In this document: in pieces, positions 2,280 through 23,218 of the stretch
Layout of the letters: every line of letters starts with the position of its first letter
How positions within the stretch are numbered: the stretch's first letter is position 1
NCBI GenBank assembly: GCA_963666705.2
Contig: CAXXKO010000028.1
Location: 86,431-110,430, forward strand
Direction: 5' to 3'
Source: Alphaproteobacteria bacterium
GTDB taxonomy: Bacteria > Pseudomonadota > Alphaproteobacteria > CADEGL01
DNA: 24,000 nt
Position numbers and translations under genes: made by a program
Notes under the pieces: generated by a model
Told to the model about the DNA's origin: nothing
Seen by the model: only the letters and a program-made list of their open reading frames with translations
Databases searched by the model: none

Positions 2280-3113
2280 TCAGGACCCGGGCTTCCACCA
2301 GTCGTCGGGCGACTCGATGGCGCGGAAATTGGCCATCTTCCGAGGCCGCTCCTCGGGCAGGCACAGCATGTTGACCGAGACGATGCGACCGAAGACGTTC
2401 TCGGGGTTGGCGAGGAAGTTGTCGGGGTTGAACAGCGGCGGCAGGTGCCAGTAGAGACGGTAGCCGAGGCCGAAGAGCTGGGCGATAAGGGATGCGGACT
2501 TCTCGCGCCGGTCGTTCTCCACATAGAGCACGGGCCGGAACGCACGGATCGTTTCCGCGGCGCCCGCGATGACCTCGCCCTCCATGCCCTCGACGTCGAT
2601 CTTGAGGAAGTGGCAGGCGCCGAGGCCGAAATCGTCGAGCCGCGCCACGCGGACCCGTGCGCCCTTCTCGTATTCGCCGAGCGTCACGCCGCCGAAATTG
2701 CCCTCCGCGCCATAATCGATGTTGGGCACGAGGATGTGGCCTTCCTCCCGCCCGGCCGCCGCATGGTGGGTATGGACGTTGGTGTGGCCGGCCAGCGCCA
2801 CGTTCGCGCACAACATCTGGAACAGGACGCGTTGGGGCTCGAGTGCCAGCACCCCGCCCCCCGGCCCCACCATGGCCGCGAGCGCCGCGGTATGGGCGCC
2901 GATATTGGCGCCGATTTCGGCCACCACCTGGCCTGGTTTCACAAGCTGCCGGAACAGGTCCGCCTCACCCTGCGAGAACTCGCCGTAGCGGTCGAGCGAC
3001 CAGCCGACGAAGCGGTCGGTGAGCGGATAGACCGTGAGGCCGTGCCGGCAGCGCCGGAGCCGGGTATAGCCCCGGTCGAACAGAACCTCGCCCGGCCAAG
3101 CGCCGCCGGTCAA
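2280..3113 (-). CDS. FkbM-family SAM-dependent methyltransferase
   Basis: This is the C-terminal 277 aa of ORF 2280..3578. It has SAM motif I VVAEIGANIGAHT and the FkbM signature FLKIDVEGMEGEVIAG. The part of the ORF upstream of 3113 overlaps the SDR gene and is Arg/His-rich junk. The only ATG/GTG/TTG I identified at or just upstream of the conserved block is TTG 3111-3113, which overlaps the SDR stop (TTGA). Identity is more certain than the start. Confidence 0.7.
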   Translation of the reverse strand: MTGGAWPGEVLFDRGYTRLRRCRHGLTVYPLTDRFVGWSLDRYGEFSQGEADLFRQLVKPGQVVAEIGANIGAHTAALAAMVGPGGGVLALEPQRVLFQMLCANVALAGHTNVHTHHAAAGREEGHILVPNIDYGAEGNFGGVTLGEYEKGARVRVARLDDFGLGACHFLKIDVEGMEGEVIAGAAETIRAFRPVLYVENDRREKSASLIAQLFGLGYRLYWHLPPLFNPDNFLANPENVFGRIVSVNMLCLPEERPRKMANFRAIESPDDWWKPGS

Positions 3114-3889
3114 AGGGTGCCGGGATAGGAGCCGCCGTCGAGCACCAGGTTCTGGCCGGTGATAAAGCTCGCCTGATCGCTGCACAGATAGGCGCAGGCG
3201 TCGCCGAACTCCTCGGCCGTGCCGAACCGGCCGGCGGGGTTCCCCTCCATGCGCGCACGGCGCACGTCCTCGATGCTCGTCCCGGTGGCCTCGGCCATGG
3301 CGATCATGGTGCCCTGGAGGCGGTCGGTATCGAAGGGCCCCGGCAGGATATTGTTGATGGTCACGTTGCGGCGCACGGTCTCGCGCGCGAGGCCGGCGAC
3401 GGCCCCGGTGAGGCCCGCGCGGGCGCCGTTCGACAGGCCGAGGATCGGTATCGGCGCCTTCACCGAGGTCGAGGTGATGTTGACGATGCGGCCCCAGCCG
3501 CGCTCCATCATGCCATCGACCGTGGCCTTGATGAGCAGGATGGGCGTCAGCATGTTGGCGTCGACGGCCGCGATCCATTCGTCCCGCCCCCAGTCGTGGA
3601 ACTTGCCGGGCGGTGGGCCGCCCGCATTGTTGACCAGGATGTCGGGCGCGGGGCAGGCGGCGAGGGCCGCCACCCTGCCCTCGTCCGTGGTGATATCGGC
3701 CGCCACGGCCGTGACCCTGGCCCCCGTGGCCGCGCGAATTGCCTCGGCCGTCGCCTCGAGCGGCCCTGGCGTGCGGGCGACGATCGTCACGTCACAGCCT
3801 TCGCGCGCGAGGGCGTGCGCGCAGCCCCGCCCGAGCCCCTTGCTGGCCGCGCATACCAACGCCGATCTGCCCGCGATTCCGAGATCCAT
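3110..3889 (-). CDS. Short-chain dehydrogenase/reductase family protein (atypical, no YxxxK)
   Basis: 259 aa. Rossmann motif ALVCAASKGLGRG, NNAG motif, and a C-terminal ITGQNLVLDGG typical of SDRs. GGGGAGG Shine-Dalgarno 8 nt upstream of ATG 3889. The expected catalytic Tyr/Lys position reads LSNGAR. Confidence 0.85.
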   Translation of the reverse strand: MDLGIAGRSALVCAASKGLGRGCAHALAREGCDVTIVARTPGPLEATAEAIRAATGARVTAVAADITTDEGRVAALAACPAPDILVNNAGGPPPGKFHDWGRDEWIAAVDANMLTPILLIKATVDGMMERGWGRIVNITSTSVKAPIPILGLSNGARAGLTGAVAGLARETVRRNVTINNILPGPFDTDRLQGTMIAMAEATGTSIEDVRRARMEGNPAGRFGTAEEFGDACAYLCSDQASFITGQNLVLDGGSYPGTL

Positions 3890-5682: not shown

Positions 5683-6224
5683 GTGGTGTCTTCCAGGGTG
5701 GCCGTCTGGCGCGCCCACTTGAACAGATAGCTCCCCCCCGAGAGCAGGGTCGTGGTCGCGACGGCGTAGATCAGGGCGTCGATCAACAGCCTGTCGCCGA
5801 TCCCGAGTCCCAGCATGGCGAGCGTAAGCGCCGCCAGCACGATCTGGGCGAAGGTATTGAGCTTGCTGATCAGCAGGGGCTGGATCTTGACCGACTGGCT
5901 CATCATCAGGGCGAGGGCCGAGCAGCCGACGATCAGCATGTCGCGGGCGACGACCAGGATAACGAGCCAGGACGGCAGCTCGTCCTGGATGCCCAGCACC
6001 ACGTAGACGCTGACCAGCAGCACCTTGTCGGCCAGGGGGTCGAGGTAACGCCCGAGCTCGGTGCGCTGGCCGAGCCGCTTGGCGAGATAGCCGTCGACGC
6101 CGTCGGATACCCCCGCCGCCACGAATAGCCAGAAGGCGGCGCCATAGGCGCCCGTGGTGATGAGCCAGAGCGCCACCGGGACCGAGAGCAGCCGCGCGAG
6201 GCTTATGACGTTGGGCGCGTTCAC
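5679..6224 (-). CDS. CDP-alcohol phosphatidyltransferase family protein (PgsA-like)
   Basis: 181 aa, polytopic. Carries the CDP-alcohol phosphatidyltransferase signature DGVDGYLAKRLGQRTELGRYLDPLADK (D-G-x2-A-R-x8-G-x3-D-x3-D). The GTG start at 6222-6224 overlaps the upstream stop (GTGA). Confidence 0.85.
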   Translation of the reverse strand: MNAPNVISLARLLSVPVALWLITTGAYGAAFWLFVAAGVSDGVDGYLAKRLGQRTELGRYLDPLADKVLLVSVYVVLGIQDELPSWLVILVVARDMLIVGCSALALMMSQSVKIQPLLISKLNTFAQIVLAALTLAMLGLGIGDRLLIDALIYAVATTTLLSGGSYLFKWARQTATLEDTT

Positions 6225-19702: not shown

Positions 19703-21025
19703 ATGCCGGATACGCACCCACGGCGAAAACCAGCGACCGGCCGCCCGGCGGCGGGGCGGCGATGCGCCTTCGCCGCGGTGCTGAGGGGGGCGCTGCTGCT
19801 CGCCGCGATCGTGGTCGCGGGCCCGGCCCAGGCGCAGGAGGTCATGCGCATCGCCGCGGTGGTCAACGACGAGGTCATCTCGGTCTACGACCTGAGCGCG
19901 CGGATGCGGCTGGTGCTGATCTCCTCGGGCCTCGAGGACACGCAAGAGGTCCGCAATCGCCTGGTCCCCCAGGTCCTCCGCGGCCTCGTCGACGAGAGGC
20001 TCCAGCTCCAGGAAGCCAAGCGCCTCAACATCTCCGTGCGCCAGGACCGCATCGACGAGGCCCTCCACACCATAGAAGAGCAGAACGAGATGGCGGCCGG
20101 GGGGCTCGACGCCTTTCTCGGCCGCGCGGGCGTCGACCGCGCAACCATCGAGGAGCAGGTGCGCGCGGGTATCTCTTGGGCGCGCCTCCTCGAACGCGAG
20201 TCCAAGATCAGCGTCATCGTGACCGATGAGGAGGTCGACGAGGTCATCGCCCGCATCGATGCCAATCGCGGCCGGCCACAGAGCCTGGTCTCGGAAATCT
20301 TCCTGGCGGTGGATTCGGTGGACGAGGCGCGCGAGGTGGAGGTGGCCGCCTTGCGCCTCACGGAACAGATACGCGCGGGCGCCAACTTCCAAGCCCTCGC
20401 CCAACAGTTCTCGCAAAGCGCCACGGCGGCCGTGGGTGGCGATCTCGGCTGGATGCAGGAGGGTCAGCTTTCGCCGGAGATCGAGCAGGCCCTGGCATCG
20501 GTCGAGCCGGGCCAGATCACGCCGCCCGTCCGGACCCTCACGGGCTTCCATATCCTGCAACTGCGCAAGCGGCAGATGTTCGCGGCGGCCAACATGGACG
20601 ATGTCGTCGTGACCCTCGAGAACCTCTATTTCGAGCTCCCCCGCAATGCGAGCGAGGACGACGCCCAGAGCGCGCGGGACTTGGCCGCCGTCATCAGCGA
20701 CACCGTCGCCAATTGCGGGGACATGCGCTCCCTGCGGGAGGAGAGTGGCGCCACGACCTTCCCGCTGCCGAGAGAGATCCGCGTCGGCGACCTCAACGAG
20801 GAAATCCGCGCAACGGTCGGTGGCCTCGAGATAGACGATGCCAGTCCGCCGCTCGCCATCGGCGCCGGGGTGATGGTGCTCATGGTGTGCAGTCGAACCC
20901 AGCCGCCCGGCGGGATCGACCGCGAGGAGATCCGCGAGACCCTGGTCTCTCAGCAACTCGACGTGCTCGCGCGCCGCGTGATGCGCGACCTCCGCCGGGC
21001 CGCCTTCATCGACCTGCGCCTATGA
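19703..21025 (+). CDS. surA: Periplasmic chaperone / peptidyl-prolyl isomerase SurA
   Basis: 440 aa. Signal peptide ending AGPAQAQE, a SurA N-terminal chaperone domain, and a parvulin PPIase block GGDLGWMQEGQLSPEIEQAL...TGFHILQL. Confidence 0.88.
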   Translation: MPDTHPRRKPATGRPAAGRRCAFAAVLRGALLLAAIVVAGPAQAQEVMRIAAVVNDEVISVYDLSARMRLVLISSGLEDTQEVRNRLVPQVLRGLVDERLQLQEAKRLNISVRQDRIDEALHTIEEQNEMAAGGLDAFLGRAGVDRATIEEQVRAGISWARLLERESKISVIVTDEEVDEVIARIDANRGRPQSLVSEIFLAVDSVDEAREVEVAALRLTEQIRAGANFQALAQQFSQSATAAVGGDLGWMQEGQLSPEIEQALASVEPGQITPPVRTLTGFHILQLRKRQMFAAANMDDVVVTLENLYFELPRNASEDDAQSARDLAAVISDTVANCGDMRSLREESGATTFPLPREIRVGDLNEEIRATVGGLEIDDASPPLAIGAGVMVLMVCSRTQPPGGIDREEIRETLVSQQLDVLARRVMRDLRRAAFIDLRL

Positions 21026-22074
21026 GGGGACGCGCCGCCGCTCCGGCGGCCGGGGGCGAGGCGCCGCTCGCCCTCACCCTCGGCGAGCCGGCGGGGATCT
21101 GCGGCGAGATCGCGTGCCGGGCCTGGCGCGCGCTCAGCGCCTCGGGACCCGTCTTCTTCGCCATCGGCGACCCGGCGTACTACGAGCGCACCGCGAGCGA
21201 CCTCGGGCTCTCGACGCCGGTGGCCGCCATCGATTCGCCCGCGGCGGCGGCGGCGGTCTTCCCCGGGGCGCTGCCCGTGCTCGGCCAGCGGCTGCCGGCA
21301 CCGGCCGTCGCGGGCCGGCCCGACCCGGCCAACGGCGCGGCGGTGACCGCGTCGATCGAGCGCGCCGTCGAATTGGCCCTGGCGGGGCAAGCGGCGGGTC
21401 TCGTCACCAACCCCATCCACAAGCGCACCCTCTACGATTCGGGCTTCGCCTATCCCGGCCACACCGAGCTCCTCGCCGCCCTGGCCGGCCCGGCATACCG
21501 GCCGGCGATGATGCTGGCCTGTGAGGGGTTGAGGGTAGTGCCCGTCACCATCCACCTGTCGCTGGCCGAGGCCCTCACGCGCCTCGATGCGGACACGATC
21601 GTCGCCCAGGGCGAGATCACGGCCGCGGCGCTCAGGCGGGATTTCGCCATTGCGCGGCCGCGCCTCGCGATCGCCGCCCTCAACCCCCATGGCGGCGAGG
21701 ACGGCCATATGGGGCGCGAGGAGATCGAGATCATCGCCCCGGCGGCCGAGCGCCTGCGCCGCGCGGGGATCGAGGTCCTGGGCCCGGCCCCGGCGGATAC
21801 CCTGTTCCACGCGGCCGCGCGGACGCGCTACGACGCCGCCCTCTGCATGTATCACGACCAGGCGCTGATCCCGCTCAAGACCATCGATTTCGACGGCGGC
21901 GTCAACCTCACCCTCGGCCTGCCTTTCGTGCGCGCCTCGCCCGACCATGGCACGGCGCTCGACATCGCCGGCCGCGGCGAGGCCAACCCCGCCAGCCTGA
22001 TCGCCGCCCTCCGCATCGCCCGCGAGATAGCCAGCAACCGCGCGAGGGCGGCCGGAGCGCGGGCGGCCGTCTAG
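21022..22074 (+). CDS. pdxA: 4-hydroxythreonine-4-phosphate dehydrogenase
   Basis: 350 aa from ATG 21022, which overlaps the surA stop (ATGA). LALTLGEPAGICGEI, YPGHTELLA, LNPHGGEDGHMGREE and the C-terminal RASPDHGTALDIAG are PdxA motifs. Confidence 0.9.
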   Translation: MRGRAAAPAAGGEAPLALTLGEPAGICGEIACRAWRALSASGPVFFAIGDPAYYERTASDLGLSTPVAAIDSPAAAAAVFPGALPVLGQRLPAPAVAGRPDPANGAAVTASIERAVELALAGQAAGLVTNPIHKRTLYDSGFAYPGHTELLAALAGPAYRPAMMLACEGLRVVPVTIHLSLAEALTRLDADTIVAQGEITAAALRRDFAIARPRLAIAALNPHGGEDGHMGREEIEIIAPAAERLRRAGIEVLGPAPADTLFHAAARTRYDAALCMYHDQALIPLKTIDFDGGVNLTLGLPFVRASPDHGTALDIAGRGEANPASLIAALRIAREIASNRARAAGARAAV

Positions 22075-22088
22075 GAGACCGGACCATG
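22073..22088 (+). promoter_or_regulatory. Intact Shine-Dalgarno plus ATG of the inferred ancestral rsmA start
   Basis: AGGAG at 22073-22077 overlaps the pdxA TAG, followed by an 8-nt spacer and ATG 22086-22088. This ATG is out of frame with rsmA today, and in frame once the 266 bp (element plus one TA) are removed. Confidence 0.6.
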
Positions 22089-22095
22089 GCCGGTT

Positions 22096-22131
22096 CTAGT
22101 ACCCACTTTCATAATTCCGTGTGCCATACGA
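22096..22131. repeat. Left terminal inverted repeat of the MITE-like element
   Basis: ctagtacccactttcataattccgtgtgccatacga. Its reverse complement matches 22330-22365 at 35 of 36 positions. Confidence 0.9.
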
Positions 22132-22362
22132 CGGCGCCCCGAGGTTCCCGGCTAGGAGGGTGGCGCGCCGTGATGCCGGGGCATCACAAGCGGCGCGCGA
22201 CGACGTCCGGGGGCCTCGGGGCGCCGCCCTACGGGTCGCTTTTCCCGCCCCCTCGGGGCGTCGAGGACGCTGGACGATGCCCCGGCATCGCCGGCGCGCC
22301 CCCTCCTACCGAGGAGACGGGAAAAGCGATCGTATGGCACACGGAATTATGAAAGTGGGTTC
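22099..22362. mobile_element. 264-bp non-autonomous MITE-like element inserted in the 5' end of rsmA
   Basis: 31-bp perfect terminal inverted repeats (22101-22131 acccactttcataattccgtgtgccatacga versus 22330-22360), extending to 36 bp with one mismatch. It is flanked by TA within CTAG on both sides (22096-22099 and 22362-22365), which is also an 8-bp direct repeat GGTTCTAG (22092-22099 and 22358-22365). The AT-rich ends contrast with the GC-rich host. There is no room for a transposase. Confidence 0.8.
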
Positions 22363-22365
22363 TAG
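22330..22365. repeat. Right terminal inverted repeat of the MITE-like element (carries the present rsmA start codons)
   Basis: tcgtatggcacacggaattatgaaagtgggttctag. Contains in-frame ATG 22334, ATG 22349 and GTG 22355. Confidence 0.9.
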
Positions 22366-23218
22366 CCCGGGCGACGCCCCTCCCCTGCGCGAGGTCATCG
22401 CCCGGCACGGCCTCTCGGCCCGGCGCTCCCTGGGCCAGCATTTCCTCCTCGACCTCAACCTGACGCGGCGCATCGCCCGCGCCGCGGGGCCGCTCCAGGG
22501 CGCCCAGGTGATCGAGGTGGGCCCGGGCCCCGGCGGCCTCACCCGCGCGCTCCTCGCCGAGGGCGCGGCCCACGTCCACGCCATCGAGCGCGACGCCCGC
22601 TGTATCGCGGCCTTGCGCGAGCTCGAGGCGGCGGCGCCCGGGCGCCTCACCATCATCGAGGGGGACGCGCGTGAGATCGACGCCGCCGCCCTCGTGCCCG
22701 CGCCGCGGCGCATCGTCGCCAACCTGCCCTACAACCTCGCGACCGTGCTCCTGCGCCGCTGGCTCAGCCAGGCCGACGCCTTCGAGAGCCTGACCCTGAT
22801 GTTCCAGAAGGAGGTCGCGGACCGCCTGGCCGCGTCACCCGGCGGCAAGACCTATGGCCGCCTGAGCATCCTCGCCCAATGGCTGTGCGAGGTGCGGGTC
22901 CTGTTCGAGATTCCGGCCGCCGCCTTCACCCCGCAGCCCAAGGTGACCTCGGCGCTCGTCGGCCTGCGGCCCCGCGCGGCACCATTGGCGGCGGCGGAGA
23001 TCGGCGTGCTGGAGCGGGTCACGGGCGCCGCCTTCGGTCAGCGGCGCAAGATGCTGCGCTCGAGCCTGCGCGCGCTCGGCGGCGACGTGGGCGCGTTGCT
23101 GGCGGCGACGGGAATCGACCCCACGGCCCGGGCCGAGACCCTCACGGTGGTGGAGCTCTGTGCCCTGGCGCGCGCGCTCGCGGCGCGGGAACGGGCCGAA
23201 TCGGCCAAGGTTTGTTAG
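22334..23218 (+). CDS. rsmA: 16S rRNA (adenine1518/1519-N6)-dimethyltransferase RsmA/KsgA
   Basis: PPLREVIARHGLSARRSLGQHFLLDLNLTRRIARAAG and the SAM motif VIEVGPGPGGLTRALL, followed by NLPYN. The start is ambiguous: ATG 22334, ATG 22349 or GTG 22355, all inside the right repeat. The frame is open back to GTG 22121. Confidence 0.85.
   Translation: MAHGIMKVGSSPGDAPPLREVIARHGLSARRSLGQHFLLDLNLTRRIARAAGPLQGAQVIEVGPGPGGLTRALLAEGAAHVHAIERDARCIAALRELEAAAPGRLTIIEGDAREIDAAALVPAPRRIVANLPYNLATVLLRRWLSQADAFESLTLMFQKEVADRLAASPGGKTYGRLSILAQWLCEVRVLFEIPAAAFTPQPKVTSALVGLRPRAAPLAAAEIGVLERVTGAAFGQRRKMLRSSLRALGGDVGALLAATGIDPTARAETLTVVELCALARALAARERAESAKVC

Follow-up and report, generated by a model that had tools for sequence, protein, structure and literature searches.

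In the window, a stretch of 24,000 nucleotides from an alphaproteobacterial genome (assembly GCA_963666705.2, contig CAXXKO010000028.1, positions 86,431 to 110,430), a miniature inverted-repeat transposable element (MITE) lies within the first codons of rsmA (ksgA), directly behind pdxA. The element is 264 bp long, mobile and non-coding. It has terminal inverted repeats, is small and carries no transposase gene, occurs at several unrelated loci, and is flanked by a target duplication that is matched by empty sites in relatives. The explanation that accounts best for the locus is that an IS630-type MITE entered a CTAG site and that expression of rsmA has been kept by translational coupling; we assign a probability of about 0.75 to this explanation as a whole.

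The element and its inverted repeats

The element occupies positions 22099..22362. These limits are given by the ends of homology between copies and by a 266-bp gap in the alignment with empty sites; no strand is assigned to the element, to its repeats or to the target. The 31-mer ACCCACTTTCATAATTCCGTGTGCCATACGA is found at 22101-22131 (plus strand) and at 22330-22360 (minus strand) without a mismatch, and a pair of this kind was seen in none of 100 shuffles. Followed out to the ends of the element, the terminal inverted repeats comprise 33 bp (left, 22099..22131, GTACCCACTTTCATAATTCCGTGTGCCATACGA; right, 22330..22362, ending in TCGTATGGCACACGGAATTATGAAAGTGGGTTC) with one mismatch, a T opposite a T at 22100/22361. 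Position 22361 is a T in the window copy and an A in every other copy. The repeats are kept in all copies of the alignment, and the element-end sequence of the family is GTACCCACTTTCATAATTCCGTG.

A preliminary description, made from the letters of the window, had placed a 264-bp element with 31-bp perfect inverted repeats at the same coordinates, and the shuffle test agrees with it. Its flanks, ggttcTA/G...C/TAgcccgg, were also read correctly; in full they are ggttcTA/GTACCCACTTTCATAATTCCGTGTGCCATACGA...TCGTATGGCACACGGAATTATGAAAGTGGGTTC/TAgcccgg. It had further proposed repeats of 36 bp with one mismatch. The mismatch exists, and the length becomes 33 bp once the TA and the outer C/G of the CTAG target are excluded.

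The GC content is 0.48-0.55 at both element ends, as compared to 0.7-0.85 in the surroundings. Together with both TAs (268 nt), the element is predicted to fold into a single long hairpin, with -198.7 kcal/mol as RNA (z = -15.3) and -119.3 kcal/mol as DNA (z = -14.8). Nearly all of the non-coding sequence is self-complementary, and a sister subfamily has a length of 275 bp. The 88-aa frame that runs through the element matches no Pfam family. A six-frame peptide search with the element returned only host genes that overlap other copies and no transposase gene. Furthermore, a promoter and terminator scan of 21900-22600 revealed no obvious sigma-70 promoter and no intrinsic terminator brought by the element.

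Presence in the host species and empty sites in relatives

The insertion was found in all four independent assemblies examined of the host species, namely the window and the loci L001-L003 on ENA metagenome contigs of 61, 123 and 640 kb. These three loci are 99.83-99.96% identical to the window over 11.65 kb; they differ by 5-16 single-nucleotide polymorphisms over 11.6 kb and carry the element without any difference. A protein identical to the RsmA of the window is encoded on a 174-kb NCBI/ENA contig (P0245). Look-ups by exact protein sequence for the 726-aa LptD, the RsmA reference of the window and P0245 retrieved no recorded protein. An assembly artefact was ruled out because the four independent assemblies agree.

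The element is absent from the rsmA site in five relatives' loci. In L004, L005, L007 and L008, the alignment shows a gap of 266 columns where the element sits. In L050 (95.6% nucleotide identity), the element-free site reads ...ggaccATAgccGGTACTAGcccaggcgac / ...ccATAgccGGTACTAGcccaggcgac with the CTAG target in place, and BLAST of this locus joins window position 22099 straight to 22358. Removal of 22099-22364 from the window yields ATG GCC GGT TCT AGC CCG GGC GAC, which encodes MAGSSPGD. The relatives P0002-P0004, whose RsmA proteins are 86-90% identical, have the pdxA stop, 11 nt and ATG GCC GGC CCG GGT CCG GGC GAC in this order and no element. The RsmA N-termini of relatives, MADPGPGD, MAGPGPGD and MASPDTGD, have the same length as the reconstructed MAGSSPGD. 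The preliminary description had reconstructed this empty site and this N-terminus and had proposed to look for them at the pdxA-rsmA junction of relatives; L050 and the lengths of the N-termini match the reconstruction, and the gap is exactly 266. The situation named there as a refutation, a single copy at the same position in all relatives, was considered and is not the case.

L050 deviates in other respects from the remaining loci. Its rsmA start codon reads ATA rather than ATG, and TTG replaces the TAG stop of pdxA (5825-5860); pdxA runs on to a TAG that overlaps the old rsmA start (ATAG). RsmA is called from an internal GTG (6001) with 236 aa and without the N-terminal motif, and the full frame is still open. 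A 236-aa RsmA of this type is present in two independent assemblies (P0242 and P0244), identical except for the start letter, V or M. The empty site of L050 (5851-5858) reads GGTACTAG, which equals the consensus element end followed by TA and G. This may be a coincidence, may result from conversion between short repeats, or may indicate that the element was lost in L050 by deletion between the repeats.

Further copies of the family

Copies were searched for with an exact 20-mer from the repeat in a metagenome collection (JGI) and then with a six-frame peptide query. Eleven further copies, 89-98% identical, were found at unrelated loci, which gives 12 loci in total. The preliminary description had asked how many copies exist; the flanks of the eleven are unrelated, and two of them are located on the same host contig.

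The 20-mer scan contributed eight genuine copies (seven on PVBE01 contigs, one on MPMF02), which are 89-96% identical across the whole element. Four of the eight are cut by contig ends, as is expected for a repeat. The peptide query, whose candidate list was filled with low-complexity words, yielded two proteins, and both led to new copies. The locus L047, on the same 639.8-kb host contig as L001, contains two copies (L047a and L047b; 97.8% and 96.7% identical), and L048 contains one (93% identical). The close relative L049 has no element at the sites corresponding to L047a and L047b. Three copies thus lie within 42 kb read from one 640-kb host contig. Beyond the two copies that guided the sampling, one more was found in about 55 kb of host sequence, which hints at tens of copies per genome as a very rough estimate. 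Most other copies contain an 11-bp stretch, TCGGAACTCCT, which is missing from the host subfamily.

Among 185,579 reference genomes (GTDB), the exact 20-mer had only three single chance matches, all in Clostridia, and it had none among viral contigs. When plasmids were searched by BLAST with the element and with its 49-nt end, the only match was one of 22 nt, ascribed to chance. The repeat sequences do not occur in the literature searched. The family is previously undescribed and has no sequence relation to described families, as judged from the searches of Rfam, plasmids, viral contigs and reference genomes and from the literature searched. Short-read assemblies break at the copies, and therefore probably no reference genome contains the family.

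These data also bear on the notion that the sequence between pdxA and rsmA is a conserved structured leader or regulatory RNA. Its fold is very stable (z = -15), and its position within the operon is fixed in four assemblies, as a leader would require. Against this, the same sequence is missing from the site in the five relatives' loci and present at 11 unrelated ones. An Rfam search (E <= 1) gave only a chance match to a microRNA, outside the element. Moreover, compensatory change is confined to one of 111 predicted pairs, with a covariation term of -0.01. Taken together, the empty sites, the dispersed copies, the missing Rfam match and the lack of covariation exclude a leader RNA for practical purposes. 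An element derived from REP/RAYT or IS200/IS605 is excluded by inverted repeats that reach the very ends and by the TA/CTAG on both sides.

Target site and type of transposase

The alignment of the 12 copies and their flanks places the duplicated TA at 22097..22098 on the left, within the CTAG at 22096-22099, and at 22363..22364 on the right, within the CTAG at 22362-22365. All copies share GTACCCAC...GTGGGTAC. Outside the element, only C-TA on the left (8 of 10 flanks) and TA-G on the right (9 of 10 flanks) are common. These flanks match the preference for CTAG reported for IS630 and IS870. The TA in CTAG is the preferred target of IS630 (Tenzen and Ohtsubo 1991, as cited in PMC2170065), and IS870 requires CTAG (Fournier 1993, as cited in PMC13630536). 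In the proposed mechanism, a DDE transposase acting in trans, most likely of the IS630/Tc1-mariner type, would cut the 33-bp ends and join them to the TA inside CTAG. In the window, the element would have entered at the TA of TC/TA/GC in codons 4/5 of rsmA. The preliminary description had correctly seen that the insertion is inside the gene, and it had named codon 5; the TA spans codons 4 and 5 (TC/T A/GC). It had also recognized the signature of IS630/Tc1-mariner elements. A TA within CTAG fits this signature, and the assignment to the family is likely, with no cognate transposase found.

Two observations weigh against a firm assignment. First, a duplication of TA and a duplication of CTAG predict the same sequence at every fully flanked copy. 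The two sizes (2 bp and 4 bp) are not separable, because CTAG is palindromic and every fully flanked copy sits in C-TA-G. Second, the preliminary description had proposed to look for a cognate transposase with matching ends, and no autonomous element with such ends was detected in about 130 kb of host and relatives' loci or in GTDB, JGI metagenomes, viral contigs and plasmids, which were covered by exact 20-mer or BLAST only. The ends of IS1595, IS4/IS5, IS1380-like and IS21 elements near the host loci are not similar to the element repeat.

An element of the same kind could instead have been mobilised by an IS5-family transposase. The duplication would then be the 4-bp CTAG (YTAR-type), and the element would comprise 262 bp (22100-22361). 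The IS5 target is 4 bp long, CTAG is present at both ends of nearly all copies, and one right flank that reads CTAA (L014) also conforms to YTAR. The host contigs also encode DDE_Tnp_1 transposases. On the other hand, IS5-family elements usually have repeats shorter than 31-33 bp, and the insertion sequences in 60 kb of host sequence read have no ends like the element repeat. Moreover, a TA in CTAG is documented for IS630 and IS870 (PMC2170065, PMC13630536). Mobilisation by an IS5-type enzyme is therefore regarded as unlikely, and an IS630-type enzyme is preferred.

The preliminary description had considered an 8-bp duplication, GGTTCTAG, to fit equally well. It would correspond to an IS1595-like element at 22100-22357, and indeed GGTTCTAG is present on both sides in the window and IS1595-family transposase genes are nearby in the host contigs. 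However, GGGTAC is part of the element in all of the other copies, whose eight left-hand nucleotides differ (GTGGCTAG, GACCCTAG, GCGCCTAG and others). Since only C-TA-G is shared across copies, the alignment rules out this duplication, and its probability is close to zero. The repeat in the window arises from a chance GGTTC flank and the A to T exchange at 22361, which is the only private substitution of the window copy. The T makes the right end GGGTTC match the left target flank GGTTC and thus creates the 8-bp repeat (window 22095 and 22361).

A probable new start codon for rsmA

The stop codon TAG (22072-22074) of pdxA (21022..22074, plus strand; a PF04166 gene of 350 aa as called in the identical loci L001-L003, where window coordinate = L001 coordinate + 12348) is followed after 11 nt by the ancestral rsmA start ATG at 22086-22088. 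A Shine-Dalgarno-like motif, AGGAG, is located at 22073..22077 (plus strand), 8 nt before this ATG and outside the hairpin. The preliminary description had listed this orphan ATG with the same distances, and the sequence agrees; relatives without the element have the same layout. From the ancestral start, an 88-codon frame crosses the whole element (22086..22352, plus strand) and ends with the TGA at 22350-22352. This TGA overlaps a new ATG at 22349-22351, which forms an ATGA at 22349..22352 (plus strand). Here the gene callers start RsmA, and the present-day gene comprises 22349..23218 (plus strand; 289 aa; PF00398). In L001-L003, an 88-aa gene and a 289-aa RsmA starting with MKVGSSPGD are called with a 4-nt overlap. 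Further in-frame starts are ATG 22334 and GTG 22355.

As a consequence of this start, the N-terminus MAGSSPGD is changed to MKVGSSPGD (MAGSSPGDAPPLREV in the ancestral and MKVGSSPGDAPPLREV in the present-day sequence); the present-day N-terminal peptide is MKVGSSPGDAPPLR. The rsmA frame is intact, as the preliminary description had claimed, and its frame arithmetic (266 mod 3 = 2) is borne out by the net insertion of 266 bp and the stop of the old frame at 22350-22352. It contained neither the start codon in the right repeat nor the ATGA overlap of the old frame. An in-frame read-through of the type seen with Rickettsia palindromic elements (RPEs) is excluded, because 266 is not a multiple of 3 and the old frame stops at 22350-22352.

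Read outward, the consensus right repeat gives ATG GCA CAC GGA ATT ATG AAA GTG GGT AC/T AG, an open frame. Of the other two frames in this direction, the second terminates at the TGA that overlaps the second ATG and the third at the target TAG. An insertion into a CTAG of the phase xCT/AGx therefore puts the ATG in frame with the host gene.

The following route of expression is proposed. Ribosomes would still initiate at the old Shine-Dalgarno motif and ATG (22073-22088), just outside the hairpin, and translation of the 88-codon frame through the element would melt the hairpin. After termination at the UGA (22350-22352), they would restart at the overlapping AUG at 22349, which originates from the right repeat. 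The product would be an RsmA in which only Met-Ala is replaced by Met-Lys-Val. Coupling is the most economical route, because the old start is outside the hairpin, whereas the new ATG is enclosed in the perfect stem of 31 bp and is not preceded by a convincing Shine-Dalgarno motif. For ATGA overlaps, it has been shown experimentally that they support termination-reinitiation (PMC6728339). From this arrangement we infer that rsmA is expressed by translational coupling, and the gene very probably still works.

Selection on rsmA and the possibility of silencing

The ratio of non-synonymous to synonymous substitution rates (dN/dS) of rsmA between the host and L004 is 0.17, and the neighbouring genes have values of 0.11-0.29. 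On the host branch, polarised with L004, two non-synonymous and three synonymous changes have occurred in rsmA. Neither dN/dS nor the host-branch substitutions give a sign of decay, and with five substitutions only the power of this test is low, because the insertion is young.

This low power is one of several points that count against a functional and coupled rsmA. In a genome of 69% GC and so short a time after the insertion, an intact frame says little about function, and E. coli can do without RsmA (KsgA). In addition, RNase III could cleave the 268-nt hairpin, as it does with Correia elements, and the old start would then no longer be coupled to rsmA.

It is thus conceivable that the insertion has in effect silenced rsmA, that the frame is open only because the event is recent and stops are rare in GC-rich DNA, and that the ATG in the repeat is a coincidence. 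The copies of the element in the host differ by 2-3% only, and the insertion is therefore young relative to the split of host and L004 (dS 0.31); the host branch carries five substitutions only. The burial of the new ATG in a perfect 31-bp stem, without a good Shine-Dalgarno motif, is likewise compatible with silencing. Furthermore, the loss of the rsmA ATG (now ATA) and the changed pdxA stop in the sister lineage L050 suggest a weak constraint on the gene start in this clade. These arguments are opposed by the presence of the insertion in four of four assemblies with an otherwise undamaged gene, and by the recurrence of the ATGA layout and the orientation at a second gene. They are also opposed by the outcome at gene starts near the element, where six of six cases are in frame or ATGA-ending, compared to a chance of about 0.47 per case. 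On balance, silencing appears improbable, and continued expression by translational coupling is the preferred explanation.

A second gene with the same arrangement and the outward frames

The copy L047a interrupts an amidohydrolase gene at codons 2/3 and is oriented like the copy in the window. The reconstructed start of this gene is GTG GC/TA/GG CGG CTC CTG, which corresponds to MARRLLRGRYVV. Homologues start with M-x-[RK]-[RK]-LLRGRYVVTDP, and the N-termini of the closest relatives (MATRLLRGRY, MNRRLLRGRY and MGTRLLRGRY) are as long as the reconstructed MARRLLRGRY. An 86-codon frame now begins at the old GTG, and its TGA overlaps ATG AAA GTG GGT ACT AGG CGG, that is MKVGTRRLLRGRY. With the element in the opposite orientation, the incoming frame would stop in the middle of the element. 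This insertion is also present in an NCBI genome (P0248).

In six cases, a co-oriented gene starts at most 45 nt away from a repeat end. In each of them, the outward frame either has the phase of the gene or is closed by an ATGA at the gene start. It has the phase of rsmA, the amidohydrolase gene and a caspase-like gene. For lgt and a PTS EIIA-Man gene (L037/L023) and for recX (L047 15085-15175), its TGA overlaps the ATG of the gene. The chance of either outcome is about 0.47 per case, as ATG starts 54 of 62 genes and an A is found at +4 in 29 of 62; for six of six cases, this gives p ~0.01. The sample is small and the pattern was recognized post hoc, and it is treated as a lead.

It is tempting, though doubtful at present, to regard the element ends as shaped to occupy gene boundaries without silencing, which would make the element a portable translational coupler and not a neutral passenger. 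Each end has one outward frame that is open and contains two ATGs and a GTG, and the two remaining outward frames are closed. An xCT/AGx insertion near a gene start would re-create the start and couple it by ATGA to the old one, and an insertion in a TAG stop would re-create the stop. Just upstream of a gene, insertions would tend to persist only where the outward frame runs into the gene in phase or is closed by an ATGA at the gene start.

Scarcity of CTAG and location of the copies

The window contains 8 native CTAG sites compared to 69 expected, and similar ratios were found in L004, L047 and L049. In these four sequences, CTAG is 5-10 times rarer than predicted from base composition. TA is also under-represented (350 versus 589 expected). 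Many of the remaining CTAG sites consist of a C and a TAG stop codon, and TAG accounts for 24 of 62 stops counted. CTAG is 6-8 times under-represented in this GC-rich genome and is concentrated at gene boundaries, and according to the proposed mechanism the copies would therefore collect there.

None of the 12 copies is located in the middle of a gene. The copies in codons 4/5 of rsmA and in codons 2/3 of the amidohydrolase gene interrupt gene starts. Three copies lie in TAG stops, namely those of a PTS EIIA/HPr gene (L048, 3668-3670), a rhodanese-domain gene (L031, 3939-3941) and a DUF1848 gene (L032, about 135). In all three, the TAG stop is re-formed because the element begins with G. The copies in L037 and L023 occupy short spacers between co-oriented genes, L047b is located 43 nt upstream of recX, and the L014 copy is located 33 nt upstream of the caspase-like gene. 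The copies in L035 and L040 lie in longer intergenic regions. The L041 copy sits in the centre of a 64-nt perfect palindrome (CTGGGCCGAGGCCCGCCGCGTGACGATCGCC TA GGCGATCGTCACGCGGCGGGCCTCGGCCCAG; 30-60 and 342-372), which may itself be another small palindromic repeat or a terminator stem.

Other short repeats were seen near these sites. The spacer upstream of the amidohydrolase gene of L049, whose protein is 85% identical, comprises about 150 nt (2983-3135), compared to 11 nt in the host, and contains two short hairpins, GGTCAAAtccagTTTGACC and GAGCGGTTCCAGatgaaCTGGAACCGCTC. The motif GAGCGGTTC also adjoins the copy L047b (L047 15441-15475), and its recurrence suggests another small-repeat family. 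In L048, a long spurious frame (2364-3527) is called as a 387-aa protein without a family and ends in residues encoded by the element. In L032, a called frame (135-2015) that matches PF10712 'NAD-GH' is fused to the DUF1848 gene. Spurious frames that run into copies inflate protein databases with element-derived peptides.

Genomic surroundings of the window copy

The gene order in the window is lptF, lptG, lptD, surA, pdxA, element and rsmA, with gmk on the opposite strand. The closest named RsmA homologues, about 70-73% identical, are from metagenome-assembled genomes of Stellaceae and Rhodospirillaceae, and the host is therefore taken to be an uncultured alphaproteobacterium rich in GC. Downstream of gmk/yicC (about 11700 to 20870 in L001, L002 and L003, past the end of the window), the three near-identical strains differ wholly. 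They contain differing sets of IS1595, IS4/IS5-type and IS1380-like (DDE_Tnp_1_4) transposase genes, and yicC is disrupted in L002. This region is an insertion-sequence hot spot. L047 separately contains an IS21 fragment (IstB).

Relation to known elements and significance

Several known systems share features with the element. RUP is a bacterial MITE ascribed to a relative of IS630 (IS630-Spn1); like the window element, it is non-coding, multi-copy, bounded by terminal inverted repeats and inserted at TA (PMC2229807). RUP, however, is 107 bp long, AT-rich and intergenic, has stops in all six frames and has a known partner insertion sequence. In contrast, the element described here comprises 264 bp, is GC-rich inside, has open frames and an outward ATG, lacks a known partner and has no sequence similarity to RUP. 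IS630 from Shigella and IS870 from Agrobacterium vitis prefer the TA within 5'-CTAG-3'. In IS870, according to the titles cited in PMC2170065 and PMC13630536, the target TAG completes the stop of an outward frame, and a frame of the window element likewise ends with ...GGG TAC TAG. Unlike the window element, which encodes no transposase, both are autonomous.

Correia elements (CREE) of Neisseria are also small, have terminal inverted repeats and use TA as insertion site. They are transcribed together with adjacent genes, and in the mRNA they form long hairpins whose cleavage by RNase III alters expression (PMC10969869, PMC2229807). They have no sequence relation to the element, and their effects are exerted via promoters, IHF sites and RNA processing. 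RPEs are palindromic, MITE-like repeats within coding genes that stay open (PMC10969869). However, RPEs are translated in frame and add an internal peptide, whereas in the window the insertion yields an upstream frame to be thrown away and a gene restarted at its end, and the mature protein is only one residue longer. It is known that MITEs can form in-frame fusions and give rise to RNase III processing (PMC10969869). The roles listed in that review do not include the donation of a start codon with an ATGA overlap, and the term 'start codon' is absent from its text. The combination of an outward, start-bearing repeat and an ATGA layout, seen twice, could therefore go beyond what is known for MITEs.

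The consequences for annotation are immediate, as the gene calls include an 88-aa protein that is spurious, together with versions of RsmA (365 aa) and of the amidohydrolase (535 aa) that have an extended N-terminus. For the biology of the family, the copies point to an element that targets CTAG and would be channelled to gene boundaries in a genome purged of CTAG. For the host, the locus is a clear natural case of a transposable element in the first codons of a universally conserved ribosome-biogenesis gene whose frame is intact. It suggests a concrete route of expression, in which a start codon donated by the repeat would be used by termination-reinitiation at an ATGA, and a second gene of the same genome is arranged alike.

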